64,000 bases of DNA from a virus (Duplodnaviria > Heunggongvirae > Uroviricota > Caudoviricetes). Below, in pieces: positions 6,731 through 63,697 of this stretch (its first letter is position 1; each line of letters starts with the position of its first letter). The stretch spans positions 1 to 64,000 of IMG/VR virus record IMGVR_UViG_2791355382_000001; one strand, given 5' to 3'. The translations under genes were made by a program, and so were the position numbers. The notes beneath the pieces are model-generated. The model was not told the DNA's origin. It made no database searches and saw nothing but the letters and a program-made list of their open reading frames with translations.

Positions 6731-9565
6731 CTAAAGTTGACCCTTGTCGTTACCTTCAGTCACGTCTTTGACCTTATCGCTTGAACTTGCAACAATACTT
6801 CCAGTAGACCTATGAGAATCAACGGTTTCAGCGTCTTTTTGAGCTTTATACCACTCTTCAAGTTCTTTCAGGAAAGAATTGTAAGGTGAATTTGATTTAC
6901 GTATGCCATGAAACATATTTCTACCTTTATTTTTACTTTGATCTCCATCTTTATTTTCGTCATCAAGCTTAGGAAGTTCAGGGGCCTTTTTATTCGTGTT
7001 ATTTTCAATCAGTTCTTCACGGTGATTGTATAGGTAGAACCAGTACTTTTTATCTAAAGCTTTGAGCTTATCCAAAGTCCAATCTGGTGTTGGTTTAGGG
7101 TCTGGGATAGCAACGTCTTCTGTATCTATATAGTCAGTGTTGGTACCATCGCCGTCAGAAACCGTAGTTTCCATTTCTGCTAAAACTTCTTCACGACTGA
7201 TTACATAATCGTTTCTACCAAACTTCTTGGTTAAGCTGTCGTTCAAAGCGTTCATGGTATCTTCTGAAAGATATGGTGAGTTACCGTGTTCAAAGTTAGC
7301 AACACCGTTCATGATAGAGTAAAACTCACCAGGTTGTGAGATAAAGTGAGCCTTGATACCAGTGTCTGGCAAAGCAATGTCAGATTCAATAGCTTCACTA
7401 AGTCCTAACGATACACGACCTGTGATGTTAGCGGTAATGTTACCTCTAATCTTATCTTTACGAGCTGTTTGGTTAGCGAATAACAAGCGTATACCTGTAG
7501 AACGAGCCATCTTAGCTAAGTATTCAAACCTATCGGCTGTTCCTAGCTTGCTTACTTCAGTTGGTTTTAGATCGTTGTCTTTATCCATGATTGCAGAAAA
7601 TTCGTCAACGATTACTAAAAGTTCAGGCATCTTTTGGTCTGGGAATTTCTTATTAAATTCGGCCAACTTTTGCACTGAGTTTTCTTTAAAGATAGCAATT
7701 CTTCTTCTAACTTCGTTTTCAAGGTGCTTGATTAAAGCTCTAGCATATTCAATATCCCCTGACGCATCAGCTGGTTGAGCATAAACGTATGGATTAGGGT
7801 GTCCTTTATCATTACGCATAAATTCAAAGGAGTTACCTTTACCATCAATAAATACCATCTTAACTTGGCTAGGATCAACAGCTGACATAACTGAATAAAC
7901 AATAGTCATGATTGTAACTGTCTTACCTGTACCAGTCTTACCAAATAAGATAGCGTGAGGGTTGCTATCACCTAGTTCAAAGTAGATAGGATTACCTAAT
8001 TCATCAACACCTAACATACCTGAAATAAGGTTTGATACACCCTTTTTACGAGCTAGGATCATATCGCTAAATGAAGCTGGCACGTTTACACCATTATCAA
8101 TAGAAAGCTTTAAGATACCTGCTGATAAAGTAACGATTGGTGTTGCTTTAATACGTAGGTAGTTAGCAATTTGTTTTTGAATACGATCAAAGTTGTCAGG
8201 CAAGTTAGGGTCTTGCGGTAGTACATATTCGTAAATAGCGTTGTTACCGCCGACTTCAACCTTCTTGAATTGACCGTTGATCTTAACAGCGTTCAAAGCC
8301 ATTGTTACATCTGGAATACGAGCTTTGGCTTTACGCATAGCAATTGAGCGTTGGGTTTTTGCATCATTTTTAGTTTTAGGATCAATAGCAGGTGGAATCA
8401 CGCTTAGGTCAAGATTTTGTTGAACCTTGAAGTTAGCTACTTCTGCACTTTCATCAATCGCATATCTATATTCAGACAATTTGATAAAACGTCTGTAAAT
8501 AGCGTAAGGTGTTAAATGACCGATGTAATTAAGGATCGAACCAATTTTTTCAAAGTATGAAACTAAGTAACCTTTACCACCTTGACTAGTGCTATTGTCA
8601 GGGTTAAATGGATTAGTAAAAATATCCTTCCATGCACCTAGTTGTTCATCAGCTTCATAACTAACTGAAGAGTTAAAGGTATAACCCTTTAACTTAGAGT
8701 TGTATGTAGGGTCTGATGGAAAGAAGATTGAGTTGCCAGAAATACGATCGCCTAAGCCTTTAAGGGCATTTTCAATTGAGCGGTCGGTTTCAGTTTCTCT
8801 TGACTGTCTGATTAAGATTTGTGCTTCTCTGACTCCATTAGCCGTAGTTTTAATCTTAATCTTAGTTCTTCTCATCGCTACCGCCGTAGCTTTTTTAGTT
8901 TGTGTAGCAGCAGTTCCCCCTGCCCCATCTTTAAACGGTTGCCCATTGTCTTGATAGCCTTGTACCGCAGCTTCGTAACTGTCGTTTAGGTTTTCTTTGA
9001 TTTTAGCTCTAAGTTTACCAGCTAAAATAAAGTCTGCCATCGGTGTTTGTCTACCGACTAGGTATAAGAATACTCTAGGGAATGTTAGATAAGCTGGAAC
9101 AACTACGTTAGCTGTTCGTGGGAAAGATACTCTCCAAACTAAGGCAATGCTGTCGATAATCGCTCCAAAAAAGAAGGTAACAACAAATGCTTGCCAGTAG
9201 TACCAACGATAATCACCAATCTTAGTGCTAATCCAGTGCGAAACTAGTTCATACTTTTGATGAATGGATTGCATAAACGGTGATTGTAAGAATAATTCCC
9301 AAAAGGTATGAAACCTAGCTGCAAGCATAACCCAAATTGGTTGCTTCAATAGTATAGGGTGTAAAGTCCAATGCCAAAAAGCCCAAAGACCAGCAAAGCA
9401 CCCAACTATAATTGCGCCAGTGATAACCTTATCCCAAGCAATATCAATGTTGGCTTTAATCCATGCTCTAAAGCTAAATTCAATCAACCAAAACAACACA
9501 GCAAAGGCGATACCATAAGGTAAAACATAATGTAAGATAAACCAAATAATTGATTCAAAATTCAC
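6731..9565 (-). CDS. FtsK/SpoIIIE-family DNA translocase, putative type IV coupling protein (TcpA-like) with N-terminal TM segments and a long C-terminal extension
   Basis: 944 aa. Four N-terminal TM helices. Walker A FGKTGTGKTVTIMT and Walker B LLVIVDEFSAIM in an FtsK-like motor domain. Conjugation-gene context. Confidence 0.8.
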   Translation of the reverse strand: MNFESIIWFILHYVLPYGIAFAVLFWLIEFSFRAWIKANIDIAWDKVITGAIIVGCFAGLWAFWHWTLHPILLKQPIWVMLAARFHTFWELFLQSPFMQSIHQKYELVSHWISTKIGDYRWYYWQAFVVTFFFGAIIDSIALVWRVSFPRTANVVVPAYLTFPRVFLYLVGRQTPMADFILAGKLRAKIKENLNDSYEAAVQGYQDNGQPFKDGAGGTAATQTKKATAVAMRRTKIKIKTTANGVREAQILIRQSRETETDRSIENALKGLGDRISGNSIFFPSDPTYNSKLKGYTFNSSVSYEADEQLGAWKDIFTNPFNPDNSTSQGGKGYLVSYFEKIGSILNYIGHLTPYAIYRRFIKLSEYRYAIDESAEVANFKVQQNLDLSVIPPAIDPKTKNDAKTQRSIAMRKAKARIPDVTMALNAVKINGQFKKVEVGGNNAIYEYVLPQDPNLPDNFDRIQKQIANYLRIKATPIVTLSAGILKLSIDNGVNVPASFSDMILARKKGVSNLISGMLGVDELGNPIYFELGDSNPHAILFGKTGTGKTVTIMTIVYSVMSAVDPSQVKMVFIDGKGNSFEFMRNDKGHPNPYVYAQPADASGDIEYARALIKHLENEVRRRIAIFKENSVQKLAEFNKKFPDQKMPELLVIVDEFSAIMDKDNDLKPTEVSKLGTADRFEYLAKMARSTGIRLLFANQTARKDKIRGNITANITGRVSLGLSEAIESDIALPDTGIKAHFISQPGEFYSIMNGVANFEHGNSPYLSEDTMNALNDSLTKKFGRNDYVISREEVLAEMETTVSDGDGTNTDYIDTEDVAIPDPKPTPDWTLDKLKALDKKYWFYLYNHREELIENNTNKKAPELPKLDDENKDGDQSKNKGRNMFHGIRKSNSPYNSFLKELEEWYKAQKDAETVDSHRSTGSIVASSSDKVKDVTEGNDKGQL

Positions 9566-21017: not shown

Positions 21018-21328
21018 CTGTCTTTGCCTATGTCATTCTGGCTAAGTTCAAAACCTTTCTTTTAGGAGTCTTACACCTATATCACTCAGTTAGGTTCAGA
21101 ACACAACTTTATCTTGAGAAATACGTTTCTTTGGTCTTACACCTATGTCATTTAACTTAGGTTCAGAATAAAGAATGACTTAAAAGTCCCTTATTTAAAG
21201 TCTTGCACCTATGCCATTTAACCAAAGTCTTGCACCTATGCCATTTAACCTAGGTTCAGAACGTGGCGGTAGCGAAAGCAACTCATACCAAGGTCTTGCA
21301 CCTACATCAATTCAACTAGGCTCAGAAC
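21018..21328. CRISPR. CRISPR-type array 1: 5 repeats of GTCTT(A/G)CACCTATG(T/C)CATTTAAC(C/T)TAGGTTCAGAAC (one truncated at 21200-21226) plus a degenerate distal repeat at 21018-21053
   Basis: Read directly. Repeats at 21068-21102, 21134-21169, 21200-21226 (truncated), 21227-21262 and 21293-21328. Unique 30-31-nt spacers at 21103-21133, 21170-21199 and 21263-21292. The conserved element begins at 21329. Confidence 0.85.
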
Positions 21329-21467
21329 CATTGTTTCCTAACCTATATTTAATTGTGACATAAGCTTCTTGGGAACTCTTCGGACTTGCGACACCTTACT
21401 GTTAGATTAACTAACTGGTATTGTAGAGGTTAAAGATATTGGCCAAGCTGTCGAGAACAAGCGTCCT
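21329..21467 (-). ncRNA. conserved array-adjacent element, copy A (CRISPR leader or omegaRNA/tracr-like scaffold); the only complete copy with no tRNA-like module
   Basis: About 140 nt, roughly 80-90% identical to copies at 22367-22506, 24668-24806, 25542-25690, 32192-32318 and 33375-33500. All end ...CCAAGCTGTCGAGAACAAGCGTCCT. Orientation is assumed from the copy abutting the TnpB-like gene. Confidence 0.6.
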
Positions 21468-22132
21468 TCAAATTTTATTATCTAACGCTCAAATAACACT
21501 TCAAACATGAGCTTTCACTCTGCTTATATGTGCTACCGCTTATTATGCGAACGTTTCAAAAGGTCTGAGCAACAAGGAGCTACCTTGCTACTTCCTTTTG
21601 CCTTAAATAACGTGGCTACTATGATAAGTACCAACTTTCAGGCAATCATTCAGAACTTTGTTTTTATTTTAATCTTAATTGTTGTATGTGGATTTCAAGT
21701 CCAAGACAACAATTACTGTCTGTAATCTTGATGCCATTGCCCTACTTGTTCTTGTTTCCGTTGTTATAGCTCAGTTTCCTAAGCGTCAAGGCAAACACTG
21801 TCTTTGGTTATTCCCATCTCACCACCTAGCTACCACCCTAAGCTGCCAATGGGTTATTCTCACACCGTGAGCGTCTATTTTATCCAGTGCCAACGGTCAA
21901 CAAAGCACTAACGTCACACACTTCCACATACGCACCAAACGTCCTAGCTTTTACCAGGTTTGATAGTTATTGCTAATAATCTCTCGACTTATCTAAGCTA
22001 TCACTCAGACTACATCTACTACGAATTACAGGTACATATCCGACAAGATTTGACTAAAACCCTTATGCAATCGGTTATGCTTGAAGCGTTATTTGAACGG
22101 TAAATAATTTCTGATTCTGGATCCTCTATATA

Positions 22133-22366
22133 GCCTTACACCTATGTCATTTAACCTAGATTCAGAACTTTTAGCAACGATGTCATAATCAGTTTTCTGT
22201 CTTGTACCTATGTCATTTAACTTAGGTTCAGAACTATATTATCCAGGACTTGGAGTTCAAGTAGGTCTTACACCTATGCCATTTAACTTAGGTTCAGAAC
22301 TACTCTCCAAATACCTTATTTCCACTACAAGTCTTACACCTATGCCATTTAACTTAGGTTCAGAAC
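22133..22366. CRISPR. CRISPR-type array 2 (4 repeats, 3 spacers of 30 nt)
   Basis: Repeats at 22133-22168 (distal variant GCCTTACA...), 22199-22234, 22265-22300 and 22331-22366. Spacers at 22169-22198, 22235-22264 and 22301-22330. Confidence 0.9.
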
Positions 22367-22506
22367 CTTTGTTTTCTAACCTATATTTAATTGTGACACA
22401 AGTTTCTTGGGAACTCTTCAGACTTGCGATGTCTTACCGTTAAATTAACCATCGACACACCGTAGAGGTTAAAGATGTTTACCAAGCTGTCGAGAACAAG
22501 CGTCCT
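22367..22506 (-). ncRNA. conserved array-adjacent element, copy B. It lies directly downstream of the TnpB-like gene's 3' end, separated only by the tRNA-like module
   Basis: Conserved sequence. Its array-proximal roughly 35 nt (TTTTCTAACCTATATTTAATTGTGACACAAG) resemble a degenerate repeat. Together with 22511..22571 it forms an omegaRNA-like 3' unit of the TnpB-like gene. Confidence 0.6.
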
Positions 22507-22510
22507 CCTA

Positions 22511-22571
22511 TAACGATGGCAGGAGTTGAACCTGCATCTGTTACCTTGCCTTACCGTTAGGCTACATCGCT
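22511..22571 (-). ncRNA. tRNA-like minihelix lacking the anticodon arm; overlaps the last 15 nt of the TnpB-like CDS
   Basis: Minus-strand read: acceptor stem AGCGATG/CATCGTT, D-arm GCCT-AACGGTA-AGGC, a 13-nt linker in place of the anticodon stem-loop, a canonical T-arm GCAGG-TTCAACT-CCTGC, discriminator A, and no encoded CCA. Confidence 0.6.
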
Positions 22572-24044
22572 ACTTGTTTCTTCTTTAGGTGTGGTTTTAT
22601 TTTTAGCTCCACACTTAGTACATGTCCACTTTTCATCTTGTGTGATAACCGTACGTTCATGCCCACATTTCTTGCAAGTATCATTCATCTTATCAAGCAA
22701 GTCTAAACCTTCATCTAAGATGTTTTTAGCTGCGTTAATATCTTGATCGTGGTGTGAATTACAGATAGGACAAGTCCACTTACGGTCGCTTAATTTAAGG
22801 TTGTGCTTAATGTAACCACAAGTATGGCAACGCTTTGAAGTTGGTGACCAACGATCAATAAACACAATCTTTTTATCAGCCCAGTCCATCATGTAAGTGA
22901 GCGTATCTCTAATTTCACGAAAGTTTGATCTAGTGATTGCTCTAGCACGGTATTTGTTCTTTTCCATGTCTGAAACAGCTAGGTCTTCCATAACGATTAC
23001 ATCATATTCATTAGCAAGCTTTGAACATGTCTTTTTAATATAGTCTTTCTTTAAGTTTTTAATACGTAAATGTAACTTAGCAATCTTCTTTTTGTTCTTT
23101 TGGTAATTGCTACGTTCAGCCAATGTAGGAACATGCTTTGGAATTAAGGCTTTTTTATTGTCTTCTTCAATGATTGCAACCTCTTTTTTCCATTGTTCAT
23201 ACTTGCGACTACGCTTTACGTTTTCTTTTTCAATCTTTTGTTCTAATTTTCTGATTTTGTCATATGGCAATTGGTATCTAGTACCATCTTGTAAAACAAT
23301 ATGACTGTTACCTGTTACGTTTAAGTCAATACCAGCTGCTAAACCAGTTCTAGGACGTTTTACTGTATGCTCAGCTTGTTCAAACACAAATGATACATAC
23401 CAAGTATCGCTGGATTCATGCTTAATTGTTACTTTATACAAACGTCCGTCACTAGGATAGTGATTAGCCATCTCAATTAAGCCTAACTTAAATCTTTTCA
23501 ATTTACCTACTCTAAGGTGCTTGCCGTCTTCACTGATTTCACAAACATGAGCGCCTGAGGTATAACTACCTTGATTTTCAACGTCCATTGTTGTTTTAAA
23601 CCTAGGAATACCAAAGTGTCTAGGGTTTTTCAAATGGTTGCTCATCGCTGTTTTTAAAGTACGTAAAGTGTAACTATACATGCTAGTATCAGCGTCTTTT
23701 AAAGTCCAACCACTTTCAAACACAGTTTCATCAGCATCGTAAATAGCCTTAGTCGAAAGTCCACGTAAACCTTTGAACAAATCACGTTGCTCTTCCCATG
23801 ACATTCTTTCAATGCGTTTATAAACTTCTTTACTTTGTTTGTTCCTAGGTAAAGCTTGAACTTCATCTAACTCACTAACTGGCTTATAAACTTCAGCTAG
23901 TAATGCGTTCCACATCTTGATATTAGCAAACATATTAAACGTTAAATATGCTTGTTGATCCTTAGTAGGATAAATTCTAATTCTACGACTTTCTAAAACT
24001 TTTTCTTCCATTTTTCTACAACTCCTTTTAAAATACCAATGCAA
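22557..24044 (-). CDS. tnpB: TnpB/Cas12-like RuvC nuclease, enlarged (495 aa) with an extra C-terminal zinc ribbon
   Basis: N-terminal RIRIYPTKDQQAYL (TnpB WED/REC signature). RuvC-I AAGIDLN, RuvC-II VIVMEDLAVSDM, Zn finger CHTCGYIKHNLKLSDRKWTCPIC, RuvC-III HDQDINAAKNI, and an additional CKKCGH...CTKCG ribbon. The REC-like region before RuvC-I is about 245 aa, longer than canonical TnpB. Confidence 0.85.
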   Translation of the reverse strand: MHWYFKRSCRKMEEKVLESRRIRIYPTKDQQAYLTFNMFANIKMWNALLAEVYKPVSELDEVQALPRNKQSKEVYKRIERMSWEEQRDLFKGLRGLSTKAIYDADETVFESGWTLKDADTSMYSYTLRTLKTAMSNHLKNPRHFGIPRFKTTMDVENQGSYTSGAHVCEISEDGKHLRVGKLKRFKLGLIEMANHYPSDGRLYKVTIKHESSDTWYVSFVFEQAEHTVKRPRTGLAAGIDLNVTGNSHIVLQDGTRYQLPYDKIRKLEQKIEKENVKRSRKYEQWKKEVAIIEEDNKKALIPKHVPTLAERSNYQKNKKKIAKLHLRIKNLKKDYIKKTCSKLANEYDVIVMEDLAVSDMEKNKYRARAITRSNFREIRDTLTYMMDWADKKIVFIDRWSPTSKRCHTCGYIKHNLKLSDRKWTCPICNSHHDQDINAAKNILDEGLDLLDKMNDTCKKCGHERTVITQDEKWTCTKCGAKNKTTPKEETSSDVA

Positions 24045-24119
24045 TTTATGTATAATCTTTTGGCTGACTACACTACATTAACCTTCCACAACGGACGTCT
24101 TTATTTGTGCTATCAGCAC

Positions 24120-24215
24120 TTTTTTGGGAACTCTTCAACAAAGAAAAGCAACCTGCAATTCTTTGCTTGCGAAGATGTTTACCAAACTGTGAAGAGCAAG
24201 CACCCTCCTATAACG
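24120..24215 (-). ncRNA. partial copy C' of the conserved element (tRNA-proximal about 95 nt only), immediately upstream of the TnpB-like gene's 5' end
   Basis: Keeps GGGAACTCTTC...GATGTTTACCAAACTGTGAAGAGCAAGCACCCT but lacks the array-proximal repeat-like part. Confidence 0.45.
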
Positions 24216-24272
24216 ATGGTAGGAATCGAACCTACGTCGCCTCGCTTTGCTCTGCCATTGAGCTACATCGTT
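24211..24272 (-). ncRNA. tRNA-like minihelix lacking the anticodon arm (copy C)
   Basis: Minus-strand read: AACGATG-TA-GCTC-AATGGCA-GAGC-A-[13 nt AAGCGAGGCGAC...]-GTAGG-TTCGATT-CCTAC-CATCGTT-A. Canonical D- and T-arms with a 13-nt linker instead of the anticodon arm. Confidence 0.6.
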
Positions 24273-24302
24273 ATTTTGACTTTAATTAAGCCCATGATTT
24301 CA

Positions 24303-24667
24303 GTCTTACACCTATGTCATTTAACCTAGGTTCAGAACTGTGAATTATAATCACTCACATAAACGTGAGTCTTACACCTATGTCAATTCAACTAGGTTCA
24401 GAATCCAAGTCGGCTTGTGAGTGTATGGAAGATAGTCTTACACCTATGTCATTTAAACTAGGTTCAGAACGATCTCCCAAGCGAAGGAATCGAAGGCATG
24501 GTCTTACACCTATGTCATTTAAACTAGGTTCAGAACTATGCTCTAAAGCTCTGAATGTTTTTCTTGGTCTTACACCTATGTCATTTAACTTAGGTTAAGA
24601 ACGTAGGACTGTCATACCTATTCCCAATACGAGTCTTACACCTATGTCATTCAACTAGGTTCAGAAC
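24303..24667. CRISPR. CRISPR-type array 3 (6 repeats, 5 spacers of 30 nt)
   Basis: Repeats at 24303-24338, 24369-24404, 24435-24470, 24501-24536, 24567-24602 and 24633-24667 (the last is a 35-nt variant). All spacers are unique. Confidence 0.9.
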
Positions 24668-24806
24668 CATTGTTTCCTAAACTATATTTAATTGTGACAT
24701 AAGCTTCTTGGGAACTCTTCAGACTTGCGATGTCTTATTGCTAGATTAACTAACTGACAACGTAGAGGTTAAAGATGTTTACCAAGCTGTCGAGAACAAG
24801 CGTCCT
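24668..24806 (-). ncRNA. conserved array-adjacent element, copy D
   Basis: Sequence conservation with the other copies. A tRNA-like minihelix follows at 24811-24858. Confidence 0.6.
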
Positions 24807-24810
24807 CCTA

Positions 24811-25109: not shown

Positions 25110-25541
25110 GTCTTACACCTATGCCAATTCAACTAGGTTCAGAACTAGTATATATGCAGATGAGCCGCTAGTACTGTCTTCAACCTATGTCATTTAGCCT
25201 AGGTTCAGAACAGGACTTCACCACCGTCTTCTAACTTTCGCGTCTTATACCTATGTCATTTAACCTAGGTTCAGAACAAAACTTGTTTACGATGCCCTCA
25301 CTACTAAGTCTTGCACCTATGTCATTTAACCTAGGTTCAGAACTATCAGCTCCAGGGAATTCAGCAGAGCCACGTCTTGCACCTATGTCATTTAACCTAG
25401 GTTCAGAACTAAAAACGATGAAAGCGATAGATGATTTCGGTCTTGCACCTATGTCATTTAACCTAGGTTCAGAACATAATATTATTGCCCAAAACGCTGC
25501 GTTCTGTCTTGCACCTATGTCATTTAACCTAGGTTCAGAAC
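25110..25541. CRISPR. CRISPR-type array 4 (7 repeats, 6 spacers of 30 nt)
   Basis: Repeats at 25110-25145, 25176-25211, 25242-25277, 25308-25343, 25374-25409, 25440-25475 and 25506-25541. Spacers are unique. Confidence 0.9.
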
Positions 25542-25690
25542 CGTTATTTTCTAACATATATTTAATTGTGACATAAGTTTCTTGGGAACTCTTCAGACTT
25601 GCATAATCGTAAACAAACTAATGCAATTTGCGATTATACAGAGGCCGAAGATATTAACCAAGCTGTCAAGAACAAGCGTCCTCCAAATAG
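25542..25690 (-). ncRNA. conserved array-adjacent element, copy E
   Basis: Sequence conservation; the central part diverges (CATAATCGTAAACAAACTAATGCAATTTGCGATTATACAGAGG, similar to copy F). Followed by a tRNA-like minihelix at about 25696-25744. Confidence 0.55.
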
Positions 25691-25695
25691 CGATG

Positions 25696-25744
25696 GCAGG
25701 AGTTGCACCTGCATTGATCTACCGTTTGGCATCGCTACACATAA
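25696..25744 (-). ncRNA. tRNA-like minihelix (copy E): acceptor AGCGATG/CATCGCT, a D-loop-like remnant, T-arm GCAGG-TGCAACT-CCTGC
   Basis: Minus-strand reading; no anticodon arm. Confidence 0.5.
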
Positions 25745-26476
25745 AATGTACATAAATGAATAAAGATAAAGTTAAGATTATAAGGCTTGTGCTAATGCTT
25801 ACAGGAACGATAGAGGCTTACATGTAGTTTACTGATGTCCCTGTAGGCTTAACCCTTTGCCTTACGTTTATTATAATACACTATCTCACACTCTAAGTCA
25901 AATGTTTTTGTATACTTTTTTAAAATAAAATTCGAAAAAGTTAAAAAATAAAAAAAGCCACAAGCCTAGGTAACCCTAGATGTGACTTTCTTAACTAGAG
26001 CGAAACAAACATTAAGGAGCCTCAACTGTTTTTCGCTAGTTCTATTTTAACATAAACACTAACGTTTACAATTATCCTAATGTTTGTTTTATCATCAGTT
26101 TCTTTAACCATCTTAAAACGCTTCCTTTAATTGTTTTTCTTTACTTTTGGATCCATGCCATGTATTATTGTATATGAAAAGAGGACAAACAGGTCGCAAC
26201 TGTTTGCCCTCGAGCGTGAATGTTTAAGGCTATTGTGTGTTGGCTAATTATGATTACTTAAAATCATGATTAGCTTTTTTTATTATCCAATACGCAACGG
26301 CAACGTCTATTGTAAATAATTATGCGTAAACCTAGAAAAAGCTTGAATATCATAAAAAAAGGCTATATACTGAAAGTGTGTCGTATCAGTATATAGCCTT
26401 GTTCCTAGCCTATTTTCTAGGAACTTTTTTTTATTTATAACCAAGCATCGCACAAACGAATATCTAGTCCTTCTTC

Positions 26477-26711: not shown

Positions 26712-28031
26712 CTATCCCATAGCATATTGCTTTTCAGTAATTGCTTGTTTTTGCCAATTATTATGATGCGATAATCTATCTAACTTAGATAAAGCCACTT
26801 TCCTATATCTATCAGATGTTGTTAGATAATTACCAAATATATCTTTAATATAACAAGACGATTGACTAAATCCACTAATATAACCTTTCTTGTTACTATC
26901 CTTGATTCTGACATAATCATTAAGCCAAAAACCTTTGGCATATTTAGTATTTCTAGCGTTTCTTTTACTTGTTATATTAGGTGTCTTACGACCCTTACGT
27001 GCCGTAGCCTCATGTAAGGAACGCTTTTTCTTTCTAAATTGCTTAAACATCATAATGCTAGTTGGTTTTGCTTTGATTTTTTTAATGCCACTAATTGCTA
27101 CAGCGTCATTATAGTGGGACTTGGTTAATTCTAAATCGACTCGCTGTAATGTTGTCCATGCTCCATACTGAAATTTAGCTTGTGGGAAAGAAGTAAATAG
27201 TCTTCTTCTTAGAATGTTCATGAAAGTCGCACCTTTATAAGACTTGTTGACTTTCTTTTTATCCTTACACCACTTAGCTAAGATTCCACTTTGATGGTTT
27301 TTAGTTGTATGACACTTAGAACATACGGTAATTAGATTATCTATGGTATTAGTTCCACCTAAGGAGCGATAGATAATATGGTGGATTTTGAGTTTACCAC
27401 CCTTTTTTTTACATACTTGACAAGTATAGTTATCTCTAGCCAAAACAAATTGTTTAACAGTTTGATAACCGTATAAATCACCTTGCTGATAACCCTCACC
27501 ATTTATTGCTGGATTCTTCATTTTTTGCATATCAAACTTACCAACTTCGATATGTAAATCAGCTTTAGGTAGAACTGATAATAATCTTTTTATCCAGTTG
27601 ATATTATGGTTAACCTTACTTGCCACTGATGGTGGCAACCAGTTATCTTTTTTACTAGCTATACGGTTTAAAAACCTCGCTTTACGATAACGTGTCTTAC
27701 GATTACGTCGACTTCTACGGTATATTCTTCTAGTATCTATCAGTTTTTTAACATCTTGTCTTAACTCTACTTCGCCTTGAAATAAGACTTTATCTTGGCT
27801 TGTAACAGCTAAACCAATATGTCGTTGACCGCTATCAATTCCAATACTTACATCTTGTTTATAGCCAGTTGAACCATATAAGAGCTGAATGGTAAAAGGC
27901 TCTTTTTTTAAGACTTTTGCTTTACCATCTCTCAACAAAATTCTAGCTTTTCTAGGTTTACATGGCATTAGTGCTTTACCATGTTTATTAATGACAAAAA
28001 CTCGGTTTTGCATAGTTTGTACTCCTTCCAT
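26712..28031 (-). CDS. iscB: IscB (OMEGA RNA-guided nuclease; RuvC split by an HNH insert, N-terminal PLMP domain)
   Basis: PLMP motif KALMPCKPRKARILLRDGKAKV. RuvC-I SIGIDSGQRHIGLAV. HNH HHIIYRSLGGTNTIDNLITVCSKCH with flanking CQVC and CSKCH. RuvC-III KSHYNDAVAISGI. Confidence 0.85.
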   Translation of the reverse strand: MEGVQTMQNRVFVINKHGKALMPCKPRKARILLRDGKAKVLKKEPFTIQLLYGSTGYKQDVSIGIDSGQRHIGLAVTSQDKVLFQGEVELRQDVKKLIDTRRIYRRSRRNRKTRYRKARFLNRIASKKDNWLPPSVASKVNHNINWIKRLLSVLPKADLHIEVGKFDMQKMKNPAINGEGYQQGDLYGYQTVKQFVLARDNYTCQVCKKKGGKLKIHHIIYRSLGGTNTIDNLITVCSKCHTTKNHQSGILAKWCKDKKKVNKSYKGATFMNILRRRLFTSFPQAKFQYGAWTTLQRVDLELTKSHYNDAVAISGIKKIKAKPTSIMMFKQFRKKKRSLHEATARKGRKTPNITSKRNARNTKYAKGFWLNDYVRIKDSNKKGYISGFSQSSCYIKDIFGNYLTTSDRYRKVALSKLDRLSHHNNWQKQAITEKQYAMG

Positions 28032-28330
28032 TTTTTATAAGGTATCTATGACCTTATCACGTATTTATCAGAGTTAATAAATACATGTTCTTACCCTTCG
28101 ACAATGTTATCTCAGCTTATAAACAAGGTTGACTAGCACATTAACCTTATGCTTGTTTACAGAGCCTTCATAGAGCTAGAAACTAGGGTATCATTTCTAG
28201 GTATGATCACTGAAATAACGTAGTTACTTAAAACTTAGTCTAGACAACAAGGCTTGTAGTTTATTGCTACAAGTCACCTACTTTAGTAGGTGGTTACTGT
28301 TGACTGCACTTTTCCGTCTACCACGTCGAT
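28032..28330 (-). ncRNA. candidate IscB omegaRNA region (upstream of iscB, same strand)
   Basis: The position matches known IscB omegaRNAs (5' of iscB). Contains stable hairpins (CTAGAAACTAGGGTATCATTTCTAG; TAGGTGGTTACTGTTGACTGCACTTTTCCGTCTACCAC). Called from position and structure only. Confidence 0.3.
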
Positions 28331-32058: not shown

Positions 32059-32191
32059 GTCTAAGGCTTATGCCAGTTTAATTCTCTTTCAATCCTAGTC
32101 TTAGCACTTATGCCGTTCTAACTAGATTCAGAACTTTTTGAAAATAGATATTTTAGTCTTCAACCTACGTCATTTCAGCTAGGCTCAGAAC
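32059..32191. CRISPR. CRISPR-type array 5 (degenerate: about 3 decayed repeats, 1 short spacer)
   Basis: Repeat-like copies at 32059-32094, 32098-32134 and 32157-32191 with strong divergence. It abuts element F at 32192. Confidence 0.55.
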
Positions 32192-32318
32192 CTATATTAA
32201 ATTGTGACATAAGCTTCCTGGGAACTCTTTAGACTTACATAATTGCTAACTAACTAATGCAAGTTGCGATTATGCAGAGGTTAGAGATGTTTACCAAGCT
32301 GTCAAGAACAAGCGTCCT
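32192..32318 (-). ncRNA. conserved array-adjacent element, copy F (array-proximal part shortened)
   Basis: Sequence conservation; ends ...CCAAGCTGTCAAGAACAAGCGTCCT. Confidence 0.55.
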
Positions 32319-32322
32319 TCAA

Positions 32323-32383
32323 TAGCGATGACAGGAGTCGAACCTGTATCTCATGCCTTGCTCTACCGTTAAGCTACATCGCT
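32323..32383 (-). ncRNA. tRNA-like minihelix lacking the anticodon arm (copy F)
   Basis: Minus-strand read: AGCGATG-TA-GCTT-AACGGTA-GAGC-[14 nt]-ACAGG-TTCGACT-CCTGT-CATCGCT-A. Confidence 0.6.
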
Positions 32384-32394
32384 ACACACACACT

Positions 32395-33125
32395 TTTTAT
32401 TAAGGGAGGAAAAAGTGTTGTACATATACATTCCGATTAGTTGGTTCGCCCTTGCGTTGGCAAAGGCTATTGGCACTGGTAGAATCGAACTACCACAAAA
32501 GCAACCATGCGTGCCAACCTTAAAAAAATAAAAAAGGAAAGATATTTTTGTTGCCCCACTAGGGTTATTTTAGCCCTTGTTTTACCAAGGAAATTAGCAC
32601 CAGTGGAGTCGAACCACTGTAAAAGCAACCGTACGTGCCAACCAAATCATAAATATTAAATCAAGGAGTTATGTTAGTTAGGATAATTATTACTATCCTA
32701 AAGAGAAAAAGTTTTGAGTTTGTAGCTTAATGCTACAATTGGCACTAACAGAATCGAACTGTTACAAGACAACCATGCGTGCCAGCCGATAAGTAACTTT
32801 TAAAAAAGGAGTAATATACAACCATTTTAGGGTTTATTCAAGCCCTATTGGTGTTAGCGGAATCGAACCACTATACAGCAACCATGCACACCAACCAATA
32901 TCTTAAGAGTTTATATAATAAGGCATTTGAGCCTAAAATAAGAGGAAATAGTTTTAGGGTTGTTATACCCTATTGGTAGCCAAGGAATCGAACCTTGATA
33001 CAACCACTCTACCAACTTATAAGTAATAGTTTTAGTGCAAGTGCGTTGCCACTACGAAGCTTAGGTAGCGGCAATAAGCATAGCTAGAATCGAACTAGCT
33101 TTTATTCCAAAATGCTTGTTAGATA
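32395..33125 (-). repeat. tandem array of six degenerate 100-130-bp units, each with a tRNA-like T-arm/acceptor minihelix (GAATCGAAC on plus strand = GTTCGATTC T-loop on minus strand)
   Basis: Minihelices end at about 32517, 32645, 32770, 32895, 33018 and 33118. Each is preceded on the plus strand by an AT-rich stretch with AAGGAG-like motifs and a TAGGGTT...AACCCTA hairpin. Confidence 0.55.
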
Positions 33126-33138
33126 AACCTGTGATAAT

Positions 33139-33374
33139 GTCTTATCTTATGCTAGTTTCAATTAGGTTCAGAACCTTTACAGTTAATAATGAATACAGTA
33201 GTAGGTGTCTTCAATCTATGTCAATTCAACTAGGTTCAGAACATGTGATGGATATGTTAATCAATGGTTGTCGTCTTGCATCTATACCATGTCAGATAGG
33301 TTCAGAACTATGGTCAAGATTATATAAAATCTAGGCATGTCTTCAACCTACGTCAATTCAATTAGGATCAGAAC
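33139..33374. CRISPR. CRISPR-type array 6 (4 repeats with drift, 3 spacers of 30-32 nt)
   Basis: Repeats at 33139-33174, 33207-33242, 33273-33308 and 33339-33374. Spacers are unique. Confidence 0.75.
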
Positions 33375-33500
33375 CTATATTTAATTGTGACATAAGCTTC
33401 TTGGGAACTTTCCATGCTTGCAATGTTTTACCGTTAGATTAACCAACGTTACACCGTAGAGGCTAGAAATATTTACCAAGTTGTCAAGAACAAGCGTCCT
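33375..33500 (-). ncRNA. conserved array-adjacent element, copy G
   Basis: Sequence conservation. A tRNA-like minihelix follows at 33505-33558. Confidence 0.55.
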
Positions 33501-33504
33501 CCAA

Positions 33505-34040
33505 TTAGCACTAACGGAATTGAACCGTTATTACAGCAACCATGCGTGCCAACTCAATAATTACTATAGAAAGGTTTTACTATGGCAAAACACTAGCATT
33601 ACCATCTTTTAGGGTTTATCCAACCCTATTGGCACTAGCGGAGCCGAACCGCTATGAAAGTAACCGTACGTGCCAGCCGTAAGTCGAATCGAATATATAA
33701 AGGAGTAAAGAGATGCGAGTGTTCGCAATCTTTTAGGGTCTGTTTCAACCCTATTGGCAGCCAAGGACTTGAACCTTGATGCAACCATTCTGCCAACCAA
33801 TTTAATTAATTCAATAAAATAAAGGAGAATAGGGTCTATGGCAACCCTATTGGCACTAACGGAATCGAACCGTTATTATAGCAACCATGCGTGCCACACC
33901 CAGTTAGTAAGTAAAGTAACATATAAAACGAAAGGAGCGATGCAAACAATGTTTGCAACCTTGAGCCAAGCTTTAGCTTAGCTCTATTAGCAGTTAGAGA
34001 ATCGAACCCTAACAAAGCAACCATGCCTGCTATAAGATGG
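33505..34040 (-). repeat. second tandem array of five tRNA-like minihelix units (100-130-bp period)
   Basis: GAATTGAACC / GAGCCGAACC / GACTTGAACC / GAATCGAACC / GAATCGAACC cores, each closed by a GGCAC...GTGCC-type stem and preceded by an AACCCTATTGGC hairpin. The ORF-track calls here (33609..33800, 33836..34075) are translation artefacts of the repeat. Confidence 0.55.
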
Positions 34041-40712: not shown

Positions 40713-42065
40713 GTGAAAACGATGGTCAGGAAACAAAAATCTAAGAAAGCTACCATACAAGCTTTTAGAGATATAAGAGATAAAAAGACAGAAATTCAGT
40801 ATGAATACTTGGTAGAAAAACATGTTATTAGAGCTAATGACAGTCGTTATTTAACCTTAGCTAAGTACGCTCACTTGGCTAATAATATCTATAACCAAGC
40901 TTTATATCGCTTTAGGCAATCTTTATTTAAAGGTAAATGGTTGAGTTATGGAGCATTAGATAGGTCATTTAAACAGTCATATCAACAAAAAGATTGTATG
41001 CTTTATCGTTCTATGAAAAGCGTTCATTTAGCTCAACAAATTTTAAAGTTAGTCATGCAAAATATGACTGTTTGGAATAAAGCTGTTAAAGCTTATCAGA
41101 AGAATCCTGGTAAATTTACTGGTAGACCTAAGCTGCCAAAATATAAAAACAAAGGCGGTAAAAGTATCGTTATCGTAGATAATCAAACCGCTAAATTACG
41201 TCCAAATGGCATTGTTGAAATACCTGTAATGAATAATCTAAAAATTAAGTTACAACATCAAGATACAACTAAAATTCAACAAGTTAGGATTGTTCCTAAA
41301 AATAATCAGTTTGTAGTTGAAATTGTTTATAAAACTAACAAGGTTATTGCTTATAAAAAAGATAACGGACGTTATCTTACAATAGATCCAGGACTTGATA
41401 ATGCTTTTACTTTGGCATCTAATGTTAAAGAGTTTCAACCTGTAATTGTTAATGGACGACCTTTAAAGGCAATTAACCAATACTATAACAAACAAAGAGC
41501 TAAATTAACTAAGTTATACGACTTTAATAAACAAAGTCGTAATACTAAACGTTTAAATAACTTAGATTTTTATCGTAATAAAAAAGTTTTAGGATTTGCT
41601 CATGAGGCAAGTAAACGCATTGTTGAAATAGCGTTAAACCATGAGTTAAATACGATTGTTATTGGTAAAAATAAAGGTCAAAAACACTTTATTAATCTAG
41701 GTAAAATTAACAATCAGAATTTTATTGGAATCCCACATCAAAAAATGGTAGAGATGATTGAATATAAAGCTAACTTAGCTGGAATTGTTGTTATTCAAGC
41801 CAATGAGGCTTATACCAGTCAAACATCATTTTTAGATAACGAAGAACCAATTAATCAAAATGGAGATAAAGCTCGTAAACGTAAAGGACTAAGTCCTACT
41901 AAAAGACGTATAAAACGTGGATTATTCAGGTCGAATAAAGGCTTTTTGATTAATGCTGATGTTAATGGAGCTTTACAGATATTAAGAAAAGTAGTACCGA
42001 ACGCTTTTGCTGACGGTATAGATGGAATCGGATTAGTTCCAGTTAAGCTAAACTTAAATTTCTAA
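40713..42065 (+). CDS. tnpB: TnpB (IS605/IS1341 OrfB family) with a degenerate zinc finger
   Basis: RuvC-II EAYTSQTS and RuvC-III NADVNGALQILRK. 450 aa. The C-terminal region lacks the usual CxxC pair. Confidence 0.75.
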   Translation: MKTMVRKQKSKKATIQAFRDIRDKKTEIQYEYLVEKHVIRANDSRYLTLAKYAHLANNIYNQALYRFRQSLFKGKWLSYGALDRSFKQSYQQKDCMLYRSMKSVHLAQQILKLVMQNMTVWNKAVKAYQKNPGKFTGRPKLPKYKNKGGKSIVIVDNQTAKLRPNGIVEIPVMNNLKIKLQHQDTTKIQQVRIVPKNNQFVVEIVYKTNKVIAYKKDNGRYLTIDPGLDNAFTLASNVKEFQPVIVNGRPLKAINQYYNKQRAKLTKLYDFNKQSRNTKRLNNLDFYRNKKVLGFAHEASKRIVEIALNHELNTIVIGKNKGQKHFINLGKINNQNFIGIPHQKMVEMIEYKANLAGIVVIQANEAYTSQTSFLDNEEPINQNGDKARKRKGLSPTKRRIKRGLFRSNKGFLINADVNGALQILRKVVPNAFADGIDGIGLVPVKLNLNF

Positions 42066-42240
42066 TTTAAGAGGCTTACAAACAATTTTTGAAACAAAGC
42101 ACGAATGCCAAACGAGTTGTAAAGTTGTCCACGAGAGCTTTTAGAATTAATTTTAAAAGTTTGTTGACTGGTTGACTCCATTAGGTTGAGTGAAGCGTCT
42201 TTTTAAAAAGACTAGAAAATTATTAATCTAAGTATACAGA
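42066..42240 (+). ncRNA. candidate omegaRNA/reRNA of the 40713..42065 TnpB
   Basis: Called from position only (3' of tnpB); contains structured segments. Confidence 0.25.
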
Positions 42241-42246
42241 AAGTAG

Positions 42247-42504
42247 GTGATTTTATTGTCAACTTTAGATAATTTGGCTAACGCAAGTTACGAGCGTAGA
42301 CAGCAACGCATTATGAAATTGCGTCGAGATTTTAACGACATGAAATATATAACGGTTGATAGTGTGGTTAAGCTAACTGGTTACACTGAAGCTACTGTTA
42401 TTAAGTGGGCAAAGGACGGCAATATACCATTGTTAATTGACAATGGAACAACGGTTGTACCAGTCACAGACGAAAACAGACCTACCTGGATGGGGGGATC
42501 TTAA
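42247..42504 (+). CDS. small HTH DNA-binding protein (excisionase/MerR-like)
   Basis: ITVDSVVKLTGYTEATVIKWAKDGNIP helix-turn-helix. Confidence 0.5.
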   Translation: MILLSTLDNLANASYERRQQRIMKLRRDFNDMKYITVDSVVKLTGYTEATVIKWAKDGNIPLLIDNGTTVVPVTDENRPTWMGGS

Positions 42505-43247
42505 TGCGAAAACTTCCAGACATCATGCTAACCGTAGGTGTTGTTTCTTTGATATTCTTTGGCGGTTATTACATCTATTCTGCAAACCTTTTTAACAGCA
42601 CTCAAGCTGTAGCTAGTTCCAGTCGTAAGCCTTTAGTCGTATCAGATTCTGAAGTTACGGATAGTCATGTTGAAACTATCCATCAAGATGCTATTAAAAA
42701 CGATCAAGCAAATTTAAATAGGGTTGGTACGGTAGCAATTCCAGATTTAGGTATTTTGCTTCCTATTTACAATAAGCCTTATGATGAACAAGCTTTATTA
42801 GTAGGTGCGCAACAACTAGAAGCAAAAGGAAAAGATGCAGATCAAGCAACGATAGGAAAAGGTAATTTTTTACTAGTGGCTCATAATTATACTGACGGTA
42901 AGAAGATGTTTAGTCCACTCCAACAAAACATGGGACTTAACGCTCCTTATTTAGTTAATCGACACGCACAAGATAATCATTGGCTAGATGGTAAAAAGAT
43001 TTATTTAGCTAATGACAAAGGTTTGTATGAATATACAATTGATGTTCAGCATACAATTCCTGAATATAAAACAGATATTCAAAACAACACTGATAAACCT
43101 GAAATTAACGTGATTACTTGTCTTGAACCTGACGATAGTTGGAGAATTGATACTCACGGTAATTTAAGTCAAAAATGGAGTTGGGATCAAGCTCCTAGCG
43201 ATATTATTAACTACTTTGACTTAAACAAGCAACAATTCAATAAGTAA
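42504..43247 (+). CDS. sortase-like transpeptidase
   Basis: N-terminal TM anchor. A His in LLVAHNYTDG (sortase LAGH-like) and a Cys motif INVITC resembling sortase L-T-L-I-T-C, with an Arg 9 residues downstream. An LPQTG substrate is encoded at 55536..55835. Confidence 0.5.
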   Translation: MRKLPDIMLTVGVVSLIFFGGYYIYSANLFNSTQAVASSSRKPLVVSDSEVTDSHVETIHQDAIKNDQANLNRVGTVAIPDLGILLPIYNKPYDEQALLVGAQQLEAKGKDADQATIGKGNFLLVAHNYTDGKKMFSPLQQNMGLNAPYLVNRHAQDNHWLDGKKIYLANDKGLYEYTIDVQHTIPEYKTDIQNNTDKPEINVITCLEPDDSWRIDTHGNLSQKWSWDQAPSDIINYFDLNKQQFNK

Positions 43248-43251
43248 GGAA

Positions 43252-44034
43252 GTGATTTGTGTGAAAGCCAAAAAAGATAAGCAGGAACGTTTAAACCTTG
43301 TTAAAAAGATTGCTAGAAACACTTTTTGGGGATTGATGGTAACGCTGGTTATAACTTTGATGATGGTAGTTGTTGCAACGATTACACAACCTAAATACTT
43401 ACCAGTAATGTCTAACAATATTTTTGAGTTGAAGTATGTTGCTGACTGGGTATTTTTGATAGGCATTGTTTTACTTATTGTTTTAGGCGGATTTATTTTG
43501 TATAAGACCGTAAAGAAACAAAGCGTATGGAATTTTGTTTTTAGTAACTTAGCTCTACTAATGACTTCCAGTGGCTTAGGCTTTATTGTTTTATCGTTTC
43601 TCTTACCTAAAAACAAACTTACAGTTAAAGCTGTTGGTCGAGCAGTTAAATTAGTTAACATCAGCTATTTTCTTACTTTTATTATCATTGCAATTACTAC
43701 TATGTTTGCTGTTTATATAAGTAGAAAATACGTTGATAAAAACAACTGGTACTTATACTTTGCACTACTACCATACATTATTTGGGCAGGTTGGACTTAT
43801 CAGCAATACCAACACTGGCAAAGCTTTTTATCAGCTAAGAATTTTAATATTCAAAGATTAACATCTATGTTTATCTACTATCAATCACATGGGACTAAGA
43901 TTGATATGAACTTAATGTTTGAAGGCTATAAGAGTTGCGCATTTGTGGTTTTAATAGCCTTCATTTATTTATTAACAGTAGGAGGGGTGCAACTTGTTTT
44001 TAAAGTCAAAGAAAAAATCCAAAGAAAAGCCTAA
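43252..44034 (+). CDS. polytopic membrane protein (260 aa)
   Basis: 6-7 TM helices. Confidence 0.5.
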   Translation: MICVKAKKDKQERLNLVKKIARNTFWGLMVTLVITLMMVVVATITQPKYLPVMSNNIFELKYVADWVFLIGIVLLIVLGGFILYKTVKKQSVWNFVFSNLALLMTSSGLGFIVLSFLLPKNKLTVKAVGRAVKLVNISYFLTFIIIAITTMFAVYISRKYVDKNNWYLYFALLPYIIWAGWTYQQYQHWQSFLSAKNFNIQRLTSMFIYYQSHGTKIDMNLMFEGYKSCAFVVLIAFIYLLTVGGVQLVFKVKEKIQRKA

Positions 44035-63497: not shown

Positions 63498-63697
63498 AAA
63501 CATTTAAAAGGGGGGTGAGCTACACCCTTAAGCTATCAGAGTTAGTCAATGTCATTACCCTCTAGTTAGGATATGGGAATACTAGCGTTGACGGTAGTAA
63601 ATAAAATTCAGGAAAGGAAAAATATATTCTTTCTAATAATGTAGAAGGAACTACATATCTTTCTATATTATTCTACATTTTATATAGCTGTTAGCTG

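Follow-up and report, generated by a model that had tools for sequence, protein, structure and literature searches.

How CRISPR arrays and their trans-activating RNAs (tracrRNAs) arose from the omegaRNA of TnpB nucleases is a current question, to which the published answer is a functional splitting of the omegaRNA. The question is posed by a locus in a 64,000-nucleotide (nt) stretch of DNA, positions 1 to 64,000 of the IMG/VR record IMGVR_UViG_2791355382_000001 (hereafter the window), where a TnpB-family gene, a tRNA-like module, a conserved element of ~143 nt (22509-22367) and a repeat-spacer array all lie on the minus strand. Is the element a guide-RNA scaffold descended from an omegaRNA, or simply the leader of a CRISPR array? 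An original prediction, made from this stretch, had taken the element and the tRNA-like unit together for an omegaRNA scaffold that overlaps the 3' end of tnpB and carries an array in place of its guide, and had named a plain leader as the alternative.

In our view the element likely serves a TnpB-derived, CRISPR-associated nuclease of the type V-U or TranC kind, borne on a megaplasmid, as its guide-RNA scaffold, and scaffold and arrays probably arm this nuclease against rival plasmids; both conclusions are drawn from comparison of sequences. The heart of the original prediction, a scaffold of omegaRNA type whose guide position holds a repeat-spacer array, is upheld by covariation within the element, by matches to its covariance model at the omegaRNA position of ordinary TnpB genes, by pairing of its tail with the repeat, by fusions of scaffold and repeat in two related loci (L005 and L173), and by a T-rich protospacer-adjacent motif (PAM) on the 5' side of the targets.

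Structure of the element

Pattern searches (0 expected by chance), nhmmer and a covariance model, R1, agree on seven copies of the element in the window, six canonical and one divergent. The canonical copies, with 5' ends at ~21466, 22505, 24805, 25681, 32317 and 33499, each have a mini-array of two to seven repeats directly 3', while the seventh (24205-24084) lies between a tRNA-like module and the start codon of the nuclease gene. For the copy under study R1 matches 22505-22370 (143.7 bits), and a 5' hairpin, GAGGAC-GCUU-GUUCUC, extends the feature to ~22509. Searches of Rfam with the element are negative, both at gathering thresholds and at E<=1.

Twenty-seven distinct copies were gathered from the window and from related loci (L001 and so forth) with nucleases 47-98% identical; many of these loci were taken from metagenome assemblies, in which numerous contigs end at arrays. 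Three gene-proximal divergent copies were set aside and the other 24, from 9 loci, were aligned. RNAalifold predicts four helices (P1-P4) from this alignment, with standard pairs in 95.4% of helix cells versus 42-52% when the partners are slid by 1-3 columns. Two-sided changes occur at 11 of the 19 pairs, in 55 cells, and none of 500 shuffles matches any of the observed measures. Thus CUUGG/CCAAG in P1 becomes CGUGG/CCACG in L011, CUUAG/CUAAG in L173 and UUUGG/CCAAA in the divergent copy, P2 shows U-A/C-G and C-G/U-A swaps, and P4 is replaced wholesale, as in CGGUGU/ACAUCG versus GUAUAAUCG/CGAUUAUGC. G-U pairs stand at two positions in 18 and 15 of the 24 copies; read from the opposite strand, these frequent pairs would turn into A-C mismatches, which makes the minus strand the one that encodes the RNA. 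Folding alone predicts the 5' hairpin (P0). The element is a structured RNA, more than a leader, and the covarying pairs on which the original prediction had been made to depend are present.

The divergent copy (feature bounds 24084-24208, minus strand; R1 39.3 bits), in the 5' untranslated region of the nuclease gene, has P1 as TTTGG/CCAAA, another central hairpin, and a terminal hairpin GTGCTGATAGCAC with AAATAAAGAC, followed by non-repeat sequence. Through compensatory changes it retains P1 and P2, and it is conserved in L001 (13936) and L002 (9805). In L173 a miniature divergent scaffold (480-600) lies over the ribosome-binding site and ATG, so placed that these signals of the gene itself occupy the guide position. 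The gene-proximal scaffold may serve autoregulation, or processing of the mRNA by the nuclease.

Were the element merely a conserved CRISPR leader, a promoter and/or a spacer-integration signal, the nuclease would use hairpin CRISPR RNAs (crRNAs) alone, as Cas12a does. Its place at the head of the array, the decay of repeats toward the far array end, the internal hairpin of each repeat and the turnover of spacers between close relatives would all suit such a role. The compensatory changes and G-U pairs, however, point to selection on RNA structure, P1 and P2 persist in the divergent copy, which has no array, and a consensus scan of the minus strand finds no promoter-like site inside the element under study.

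Probable kinship with transposon omegaRNA

A stronger argument against the leader comes from loci that have no array at all. Model R1 was run over ~1.6 Mb of loci with ordinary TnpB genes (~30% identical), and outside the clade it matches two of them, L064 at 6947-7027, where the TnpB match ends at 6900, and L081 at 6975-7094, where it ends at 6939. Both matches occupy the omegaRNA position, on the gene strand and less than 100 nt past the 3' end of TnpB, in loci that lack an array. Their E-values are modest (0.03-0.04, for 956 kb); we estimate for ourselves that two matches out of two inside a zone of ~1% of the searched sequence are unlikely to be due to chance.

The RNA of L064 reads AGCUUGGUAAAUA...UUCCCAAGAA-CCCUAC..GUAGGAUGUUCAGAAAAU, and that of the window element ...AGCUUGGUAAACA...UUCCCAAGAA-ACUUGUG..AUAGGUUAGAAAAC; the two agree in P1, in the terminal hairpin and even at the UU(C)AGAAAA(C/U) end. 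L081 retains the architecture with a compensatory sequence, GCCUGC/GCAGG. We think it likely, at the same level as the guide-scaffold reading as a whole, that the element is homologous to transposon omegaRNA and works like a tracrRNA. Given the covariation, this kinship with the omegaRNAs of array-less TnpB genes and the array-less divergent copy, the plain leader that was originally offered as an alternative is disfavoured, and we regard it as very improbable; a leader's part in spacer integration could be played by the same element and is compatible with its role as a scaffold.

The geometry once proposed for the element, that of an omegaRNA overlapping the 3' end of tnpB, is right in the order of scaffold and array and wrong in the overlap, which is incidental and involves only the tRNA-like module. 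The scaffold starts ~50 nt past the stop codon of the nuclease gene in the window, six of the seven copies are away from that gene, and in L003, L005, L011 and L176 scaffold and array lie upstream of it.

Scaffold tail, repeats and arrays

The array that follows the element, mini-array E (22133-22366, minus strand), abuts the scaffold: its first 36-nt repeat starts at 22366, directly 3' of the element, and it comprises four repeats and three 30-nt spacers. The tail of the element, made of the terminal hairpin CTTGTGTCA...ATATAGG plus TTAGAAAAC, is at once a decayed repeat and an anti-repeat. It resembles the repeat in direct and in inverted orientation because the repeat is an imperfect palindrome, with an internal hairpin ACCTAxGT...xCATAGGT. 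A description of the tail as an anti-repeat only was dropped, both orientations being significant by alignment and the direct similarity being the stronger in L011 and L176.

The direct resemblance is clearest outside the window. In L005 the scaffold ends in ACATAGGTACACAAC (RNA ACATAGGUACACAAC), the exact 3' end of the repeats of that locus, followed by a 30-nt spacer and then by full repeats; in L173 the scaffold likewise ends in the exact repeat 3' end, then a spacer. The corresponding stretch of the window, AUAUAGGUUAGAAAAC, is decayed, with a full repeat 4 nt on, so that the array-proximal ~35 nt are, as had been suggested, a decayed repeat without a spacer. The copies at 32317 and 33499 have a tail shortened to AUAUAG, to which the repeat is joined.

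In inverted orientation the duplex of the tail with ~30 nt of the repeat has an energy of -16 to -25 kcal/mol, equalled by no more than 4 of 1000 shuffles; for the copy under study it reaches -20.5 kcal/mol and none of 1000 shuffles equals it. Pairing leaves a 7-nt handle, GUAAGAC (GTAAGAC in the DNA), ahead of the spacer. A preference of the tail for the first repeat, which would favour use in cis only, was not found (mean -18.1 kcal/mol, versus -17.7 for internal repeats); pairing is about equal across the repeats of an array, and cis-fused and trans modes look alike in these complementarity data.

The most distant relative, L008 (3784-8760; nuclease ~47% identical), lies in a prophage-like region directly after a 1066-aa gene with a SIR2_2 domain, and has a TATAAT box directly upstream of its scaffold in place of a tRNA-like module. 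It retains the scaffold core next to an array of 29-nt repeats and 32-nt spacers that are unrelated in sequence to the 36-nt repeats; we take these repeats to be of type I-E style. The retention of the core beside so different a repeat again speaks against a leader. Pairing of CCCAGUACAU with AUGUGGGG falls at the same position as in the window and leaves an 8-nt handle.

Where the repeats came from is a separate matter. The window repeat (for example 24303-24338) is identical at 29 of 36 positions to GTTTCAGAAGTATGTTAAATCAATAAGGTTAAGACC, the chromosomal type II-A repeat of the host species, Ligilactobacillus salivarius (PMC10715006); none of 5000 shuffles aligns as well, and the arrays of the window and the II-A arrays of the host have the same 36/30 periodicity. 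That crRNA repeats arise by duplication of the omegaRNA 3' end, as was originally suggested, is plausible and is not the sole reading: in view of the host-like repeat and of L008, array capture or mimicry of a host array stands beside it.

The nuclease and its clade

The TnpB-like gene ends at 22557 on the minus strand, as first read: the open reading frame (ORF) spans 24044-22557, with a likely ATG at 24011, which gives a gene at 22557-24011 of 484 codons for amino acids and a TAA stop at 22559-22557. Pfam recognises OrfB_IS605 (PF01385, 49.4 bits) and Cas12f1-like_TNB (PF07282, 74.9 bits), and of the NCBIfam models guided_TnpB reaches 179 bits (cut-off 100), while IS200_TnpB, at 208 bits, is under its cut-off of 425. 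Judged by its sequence, the 484-aa protein is a member of the TnpB superfamily. Its RuvC triad, D229 (GIDLN), E342 (MEDL) and D424 (QDINAAKNI), aligns with the ISDra2 motifs and is invariant in 15 members of the clade, and it has an extra C-terminal CxxC...CxxC zinc ribbon. The closest solved structures by sequence are ISDra2 TnpB (E=3e-28), LaTranC (E=6e-16, PDB 9JFO, over the RuvC region) and 9J09 (E=3e-12), the entry cited as a Cas12n structure in bioRxiv 10.64898/2026.03.27.714800.

No TnpA adjoins the nuclease gene among the neighbouring ORFs or in the annotation of the related plasmid, where the nuclease gene is single-copy. With this, with an IS200_TnpB score below the cut-off and with a scaffold outside the ORF, assignment as a transposon-borne TnpB of the IS200/IS605 kind was rejected.

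The 12-aa C-terminal extension that carries the ORF into the tRNA-like module is absent from most relatives: two (P0002 and P0003) have unrelated tails, P0022 has a different long tail, and the other full-length members end in ...KNK. For this reason we regard the overlap of gene and module as incidental.

The clade is small, with ~23 clusters at 47% identity or more, below which identity drops to ~30%. It is present in 1 of 72,556 PLSDB plasmids and in no phage record, and protein scans of genome and viral contig collections recovered only ordinary TnpBs at ~30% identity, bar one IMG/VR contig. An array adjoins gene and scaffold in the window, L001, L002, L003, L005, L008, L011, L173 and L176.

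Spacers, targets and adaptation

The 22 spacers of the window and 17 from the two closest relatives were searched for targets. The third spacer of array A matches at 31 of 32 positions in many L. salivarius plasmids of 30-145 kb, one spacer of array C at 30 of 30 in a 248-kb L. salivarius megaplasmid (NZ_CP117984), and one spacer of L002 at 30 of 30 in 27-kb MOBV plasmids of the pLS_3 type. The 5' flanks of these protospacers are ATTTT, TTTTG and TTTTA/TTTTT, that is, 5'-TTTN in three of three independent cases, and the 3' flanks share nothing; the 5' side is the one needed by a TnpB or Cas12 enzyme with its guide 3' of the repeat. The 22 window spacers gave 0 matches in the phage collection, no spacer matches the window outside the arrays, and what stands in the guide position of the gene-proximal scaffold occurs nowhere else in the window. 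Since the matched targets are other L. salivarius plasmids, competition between plasmids is the most likely role. Spacer content varies among relatives whose nucleases are ~95-98% identical, and such differences between near-identical replicons suggest ongoing use.

Two further explanations have to be weighed against these matches. The arrays might serve the II-A Cas9 of the host, the plasmid mini-arrays and a tracrRNA-like RNA redirecting host Cas9 or its adaptation while the TnpB-like gene is a bystander, a transposon remnant. The repeat similarity and shared periodicity described above are what this would lead one to expect, as is the lack of annotated cas1, cas2 and cas9 genes on the related plasmid. 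The tails, however, pair with their own plasmid repeats at -17 to -20.5 kcal/mol and with the host II-A repeat at -7 to -14, no better than chance in two of the three tails tested; the protospacer motif is on the 5' side, as for TnpB and Cas12, with nothing in common 3'; the scaffold is homologous to TnpB omegaRNAs; and nuclease and scaffold occur together in all relatives, whatever the repeat type. We hold service to host Cas9 to be improbable; use of the host Cas1-Cas2-Csn2 for spacer acquisition alone is possible.

The scaffold-array units might instead be regulatory or decoy RNAs, acting as a sponge for the nuclease or in copy-number control, with the spacer matches as historical remnants. 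In keeping with this, the gene-proximal scaffold has a fixed, non-repeat stretch where a guide would stand, the arrays are short and partly degenerate, and TnpB derivatives that act independently of nuclease activity, such as TldR and Cas12m, are known (PMC10691335; bioRxiv 10.1101/2023.11.30.569447). Such RNAs would not explain an invariant RuvC triad, perfect 30/30 matches in plasmids of the co-resident type with a consistent PAM, or spacer sets that differ between near-identical replicons, and we give this account little credence.

tRNA-like modules, ROOL RNA and transcription

Immediately upstream of the element, the module at 22511-22572 (minus strand) folds into a 7-bp acceptor stem, a D arm and a T arm, with 13 nt where an anticodon arm and variable loop are expected. 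Rfam scores it as tRNA at 48 bits (22571-22511; gathering score 29), a score owed to the acceptor, D and T arms, and ARAGORN calls not a single tRNA in the window; with no anticodon arm and no ARAGORN call, a true tRNA was ruled out. The unit does overlap the last 15 nt of the coding sequence, as the original prediction had it, since the stop codon (22559-22557) falls within the module, but it is no part of the scaffold: it is a separate upstream module which probably sets the scaffold 5' end, as a predicted substrate of RNase P and RNase Z.

The window has ~18 such modules, all on the minus strand, and the T-loop motif GTTCRAYTCY occurs 15 times, always on that strand, versus 0.8 expected. 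They fall into two types. Type 1 modules, of 50-65 nt, have an acceptor stem and a T arm and, except in the shortest (25688-25737, seen by folding), a D arm; besides the one under study they include 24210-24274, upstream of the divergent scaffold (Rfam tRNA 49.5 bits, and fold), and 32323-32384 (50.7 bits). Type 2 comprises ~14 minihelices of 43-48 nt with acceptor and T arm, TTGGCAC...GGTTCGATTCC...GTGCCAA, called by neither ARAGORN nor Rfam and recognised by T-loop motif and fold: three at 24865-24808, 24987-24941 and 25089-25046, and ~11 within 32470-34033. Most of them are followed by a small hairpin and CTAAAA, at a spacing of ~100-140 nt.

A tRNA-like module or the 3' end of a ROOL RNA (the latter once per locus) lies within a few bases upstream of 21 of 21 scaffolds in the window, L001 and L002, and tRNA-like modules also stand 3' of arrays A, C and D. 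The ROOL RNA of the window (21490-22098, minus strand; Rfam RF03087, 225 bits) lies between array E and the next scaffold, and from its 3' end scaffold and array follow within ~25 nt. The order ROOL, scaffold, array recurs in L003 (~8740-9300) and L005 (upstream of 9671), whose nucleases are only 64-70% identical. A paper on ROOL in L. salivarius (PMC5643018) treats it in a different context and does not mention CRISPR.

We know of no function for ROOL, and its conserved linkage to a TnpB-derived CRISPR system may therefore be a lead. The best minus-strand promoter-like site, a sigma-70-like TTGACT-17-TATTAT, is at 25873-25901 and is a candidate origin for the presumed long minus-strand transcript.

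A model of the system and its weak points

In the mechanism that we propose, one or a few long minus-strand transcripts would run over the blocks at 25.9-21.0 kb and 34.0-32.0 kb, and the RNase P and RNase Z of the host, as the anatomy suggests, would cut the tRNA-like modules that bracket the units and so free scaffold-array cassettes, each released scaffold beginning 2-6 nt past a tRNA-like 3' end. The scaffold would fold into P1-P4, the helices that covary, and perhaps P0. Its 3' tail, at once the ancestral omegaRNA terminal hairpin and a degenerate repeat, would pair with the ~30 nt of the repeat to which it is computed to be complementary, giving a natural single-guide RNA when the partner is the first repeat in cis and acting in trans with any other. 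The guide would be the 7-nt handle and the 30-nt spacer, and the nuclease, its RuvC D-E-D intact, would bind this RNA and cut spacer-matched DNA next to 5'-TTTN; the matches observed in L. salivarius plasmids would make this a weapon of inter-plasmid competition.

A more elaborate version would see the locus as a natural polycistronic guide-RNA operon, punctuated by anticodon-less tRNA mimics and, at a single place, ROOL, from which RNase P and RNase Z excise scaffold-array cassettes and the nuclease mRNA, with repeats kept similar to those of the host II-A system so that its adaptation machinery loads spacers. We put this forward tentatively, at somewhat short of an even chance.

Several observations weigh against the guide-scaffold reading or narrow it. 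The 24 aligned copies are for the most part closely related paralogues (R1 has an effective sequence number of 2.9), so that only ~6-7 lineages are independent, and when a single sequence of scaffold and repeat is folded, the result beats shuffles only modestly (z = -1.9 and -1.1). The tail:repeat pairing of L008 is not significant alone (134 of 1000 shuffles are as good). The repeats have their own hairpin, so a scaffold-free mode like that of Cas12a is conceivable. The PAM is based on three independent protospacers, and the promoter at 25901-25873 is a consensus match only. No Cas1, Cas2, Cas4 or Cas9 is annotated on the 166.6-kb related plasmid, NZ_CP123973.1, for which the PLSDB gene table is incomplete, and none is encoded among the 10 neighbouring window ORFs that were scanned. 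For a plasmid without annotated adaptation genes, and with a repeat and spacer length like those of the host, Cas1-Cas2-Csn2 may thus be borrowed from that host.

Organisation of the replicon

The carrier is a linear Ligilactobacillus salivarius-type megaplasmid. A protein-domain scan finds RepA_N, ParA and DnaB near the locus, and the only close DNA match to the locus is the linear L. salivarius plasmid NZ_CP123973.1, which has conjugation-type surface genes. With 5 kb of the locus as a DNA query there were 0 matches in the phage collection and one plasmid match; the 36-nt repeat alone recovered only that same plasmid. An IMG/VR contig of 180 kb has the same system.

The other units of the window, all on the minus strand, are arranged as follows. 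Downstream of ROOL a scaffold copy (21329-21470; R1 144.7 bits) leads into mini-array F (21020-21328), with ~six repeats that decay toward the 3' end; within it an exact 27-nt tandem duplication at 21197-21250 (TTTGGTTAAATGGCATAGGTGCAAGAC x2) creates a partial extra repeat without a spacer and looks like a scar of replication slippage or recombination. Beyond the nuclease gene, mini-array D (24303-24668, six repeats and five spacers) belongs to the scaffold at 24668-24809 (148.9 bits), and mini-array C (25110-25541, seven repeats and six spacers) to that at 25542-25685 (136.5 bits). In the second block a scaffold whose tail is truncated at ATATAG (32321-32192; 126.9 bits) is joined to the degenerate mini-array B, the unit covering 32060-32321, and another with a truncated tail (33503-33375; 135.8 bits) is followed by mini-array A, the unit covering 33141-33503.

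Other guide-RNA systems and RNA-related genes occur nearby. An IscB gene (439 aa; NCBIfam guided_IscB, 382 bits) with a HEARO omegaRNA (118 bits) occupies 26712-28304 on the minus strand, 2.4 kb from the TnpB-derived system, and the related plasmid has two IscB genes and several more TnpB genes. At 62331-63591 on the plus strand a 388-aa ORF is followed after 36 nt by an Rfam Transposase-1 RNA (70.5 bits), possibly a transposon-type TnpB whose omegaRNA lies downstream in the classical manner. The flanks of L003, L004, L005, L011 and L178 recurrently hold a Pnkp-type RNA repair gene (AAA_33 + Metallophos + RNA_lig_T4_1, ~770 aa), with deoxynucleoside kinase, nucleoside deoxyribosyltransferase and true tRNA genes also nearby, and an RNA-ligase gene is found on NZ_CP123973.1 at 41946-44351.

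Significance and comparison with known systems

The locus is a TnpB-derived type V system resembling TranC, of a kind already known. TnpB lineages have gained CRISPR arrays independently, with 40 V-U branches described (Altae-Tran et al. 2023, PMC10691335), and TranC (Jin et al. 2025 Cell 188:6283, as related in PMC13565253, PMC13639567 and bioRxiv 10.64898/2026.03.27.714800) is presented in those accounts as a set of TnpB-to-CRISPR intermediates with a split omegaRNA; the re-fusing of a half repeat with a tracrRNA is likewise documented for TnpB-derived CRISPR lineages. What is apparently new is the presence of seven scaffolds, of tRNA-like and ROOL flanks and of host-II-A-like repeats. In the literature searched we found no seven scaffold copies per locus (six with their own mini-array), no natural tRNA-like bracketing of guide RNAs (engineered versions only), no ROOL RNA directly upstream of a scaffold and no TnpB-system repeats resembling a host II-A repeat.

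The clade shows side by side what may be the stages of the passage from omegaRNA to array: an ordinary omegaRNA that shares the core (L064), a scaffold with a true repeat 3' end and a spacer (L005, L173), a decayed terminal repeat abutting a full array (the window), and the same core with an unrelated repeat type (L008). It is therefore possible to test whether arrays arose by duplication or by capture, and whether guides act in cis or in trans. If functional, the tRNA-like bracketing would be a natural guide processing based on RNase P and RNase Z, and at least part of the tRNA-like islands found with ROOL and GOLLD RNAs would thereby acquire a function. The plasmid-targeting spacers document inter-plasmid warfare in a gut commensal, and the 484-aa size of the nuclease, its probable short PAM (TTTN) and its naturally fused scaffold are traits sought in compact genome editors.

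Among known systems the likeness to TranC and other V-U systems, as far as the accounts cited describe them, is the broadest: a nuclease closer to TnpB than to any named Cas12, short arrays without cas1 and cas2, a guide RNA that here would, to judge by complementarity, likewise be divided between a tracrRNA-like omegaRNA scaffold and a crRNA, putative coexistence of single-molecule and array-borne guides, a probable short PAM and a mobile-element carrier. The protein here is, in contrast, nearer to ISDra2 TnpB than to LaTranC, the sole TranC protein compared.

With ISDra2-type TnpB (PDB 8H1J, 8BF8) the system shares the protein fold family and RuvC triad, with ordinary-TnpB omegaRNAs the core P1 (AGCUUGG...CCCAAGAA) and a terminal hairpin directly before the guide, and with IS200/IS605 TnpB in general a guide 3' of the scaffold and a T-rich target-adjacent motif on the 5' side. 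It differs in ~75 extra residues (an N-terminal insertion, a longer RuvC-I to RuvC-II segment and the extra C-terminal zinc ribbon), in having no TnpA or transposon ends near the gene, in a scaffold that does not overlap the ORF, and in the exchangeable repeat-spacer array that stands in the guide position.

Cas12f (V-F) is likewise a miniature TnpB-derived effector with Cas12f1-like_TNB, with a long structured tracrRNA beside its array and an anti-repeat:repeat duplex that leaves a short handle before a 3' guide, and the layout engineered into Cas12f and Cas12b single-guide RNAs (scaffold, linker, repeat, spacer) is the natural arrangement here. Unlike in Cas12f, the scaffold here is joined to the array and multi-copy, and no Cas12f chain matches the nuclease better than E ~1e-5, and then only over the zinc-ribbon region.

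The nearest parallels to the tRNA-like flanks are engineered tRNA-gRNA arrays, in which tRNA units bracket guide RNAs (gRNAs), the icrRNA of Haloferax (PMC4326828) and a caged pre-tRNA-like crRNA (PMC6037731), where guides are bracketed by tRNA units for release by RNase P and RNase Z. Those are laboratory constructs, whereas the flanks described here are natural, anticodon-less tRNA mimics whose processing is predicted; if the polycistronic guide operon is real, it would be the same design later invented for tRNA-gRNA multiplexing.

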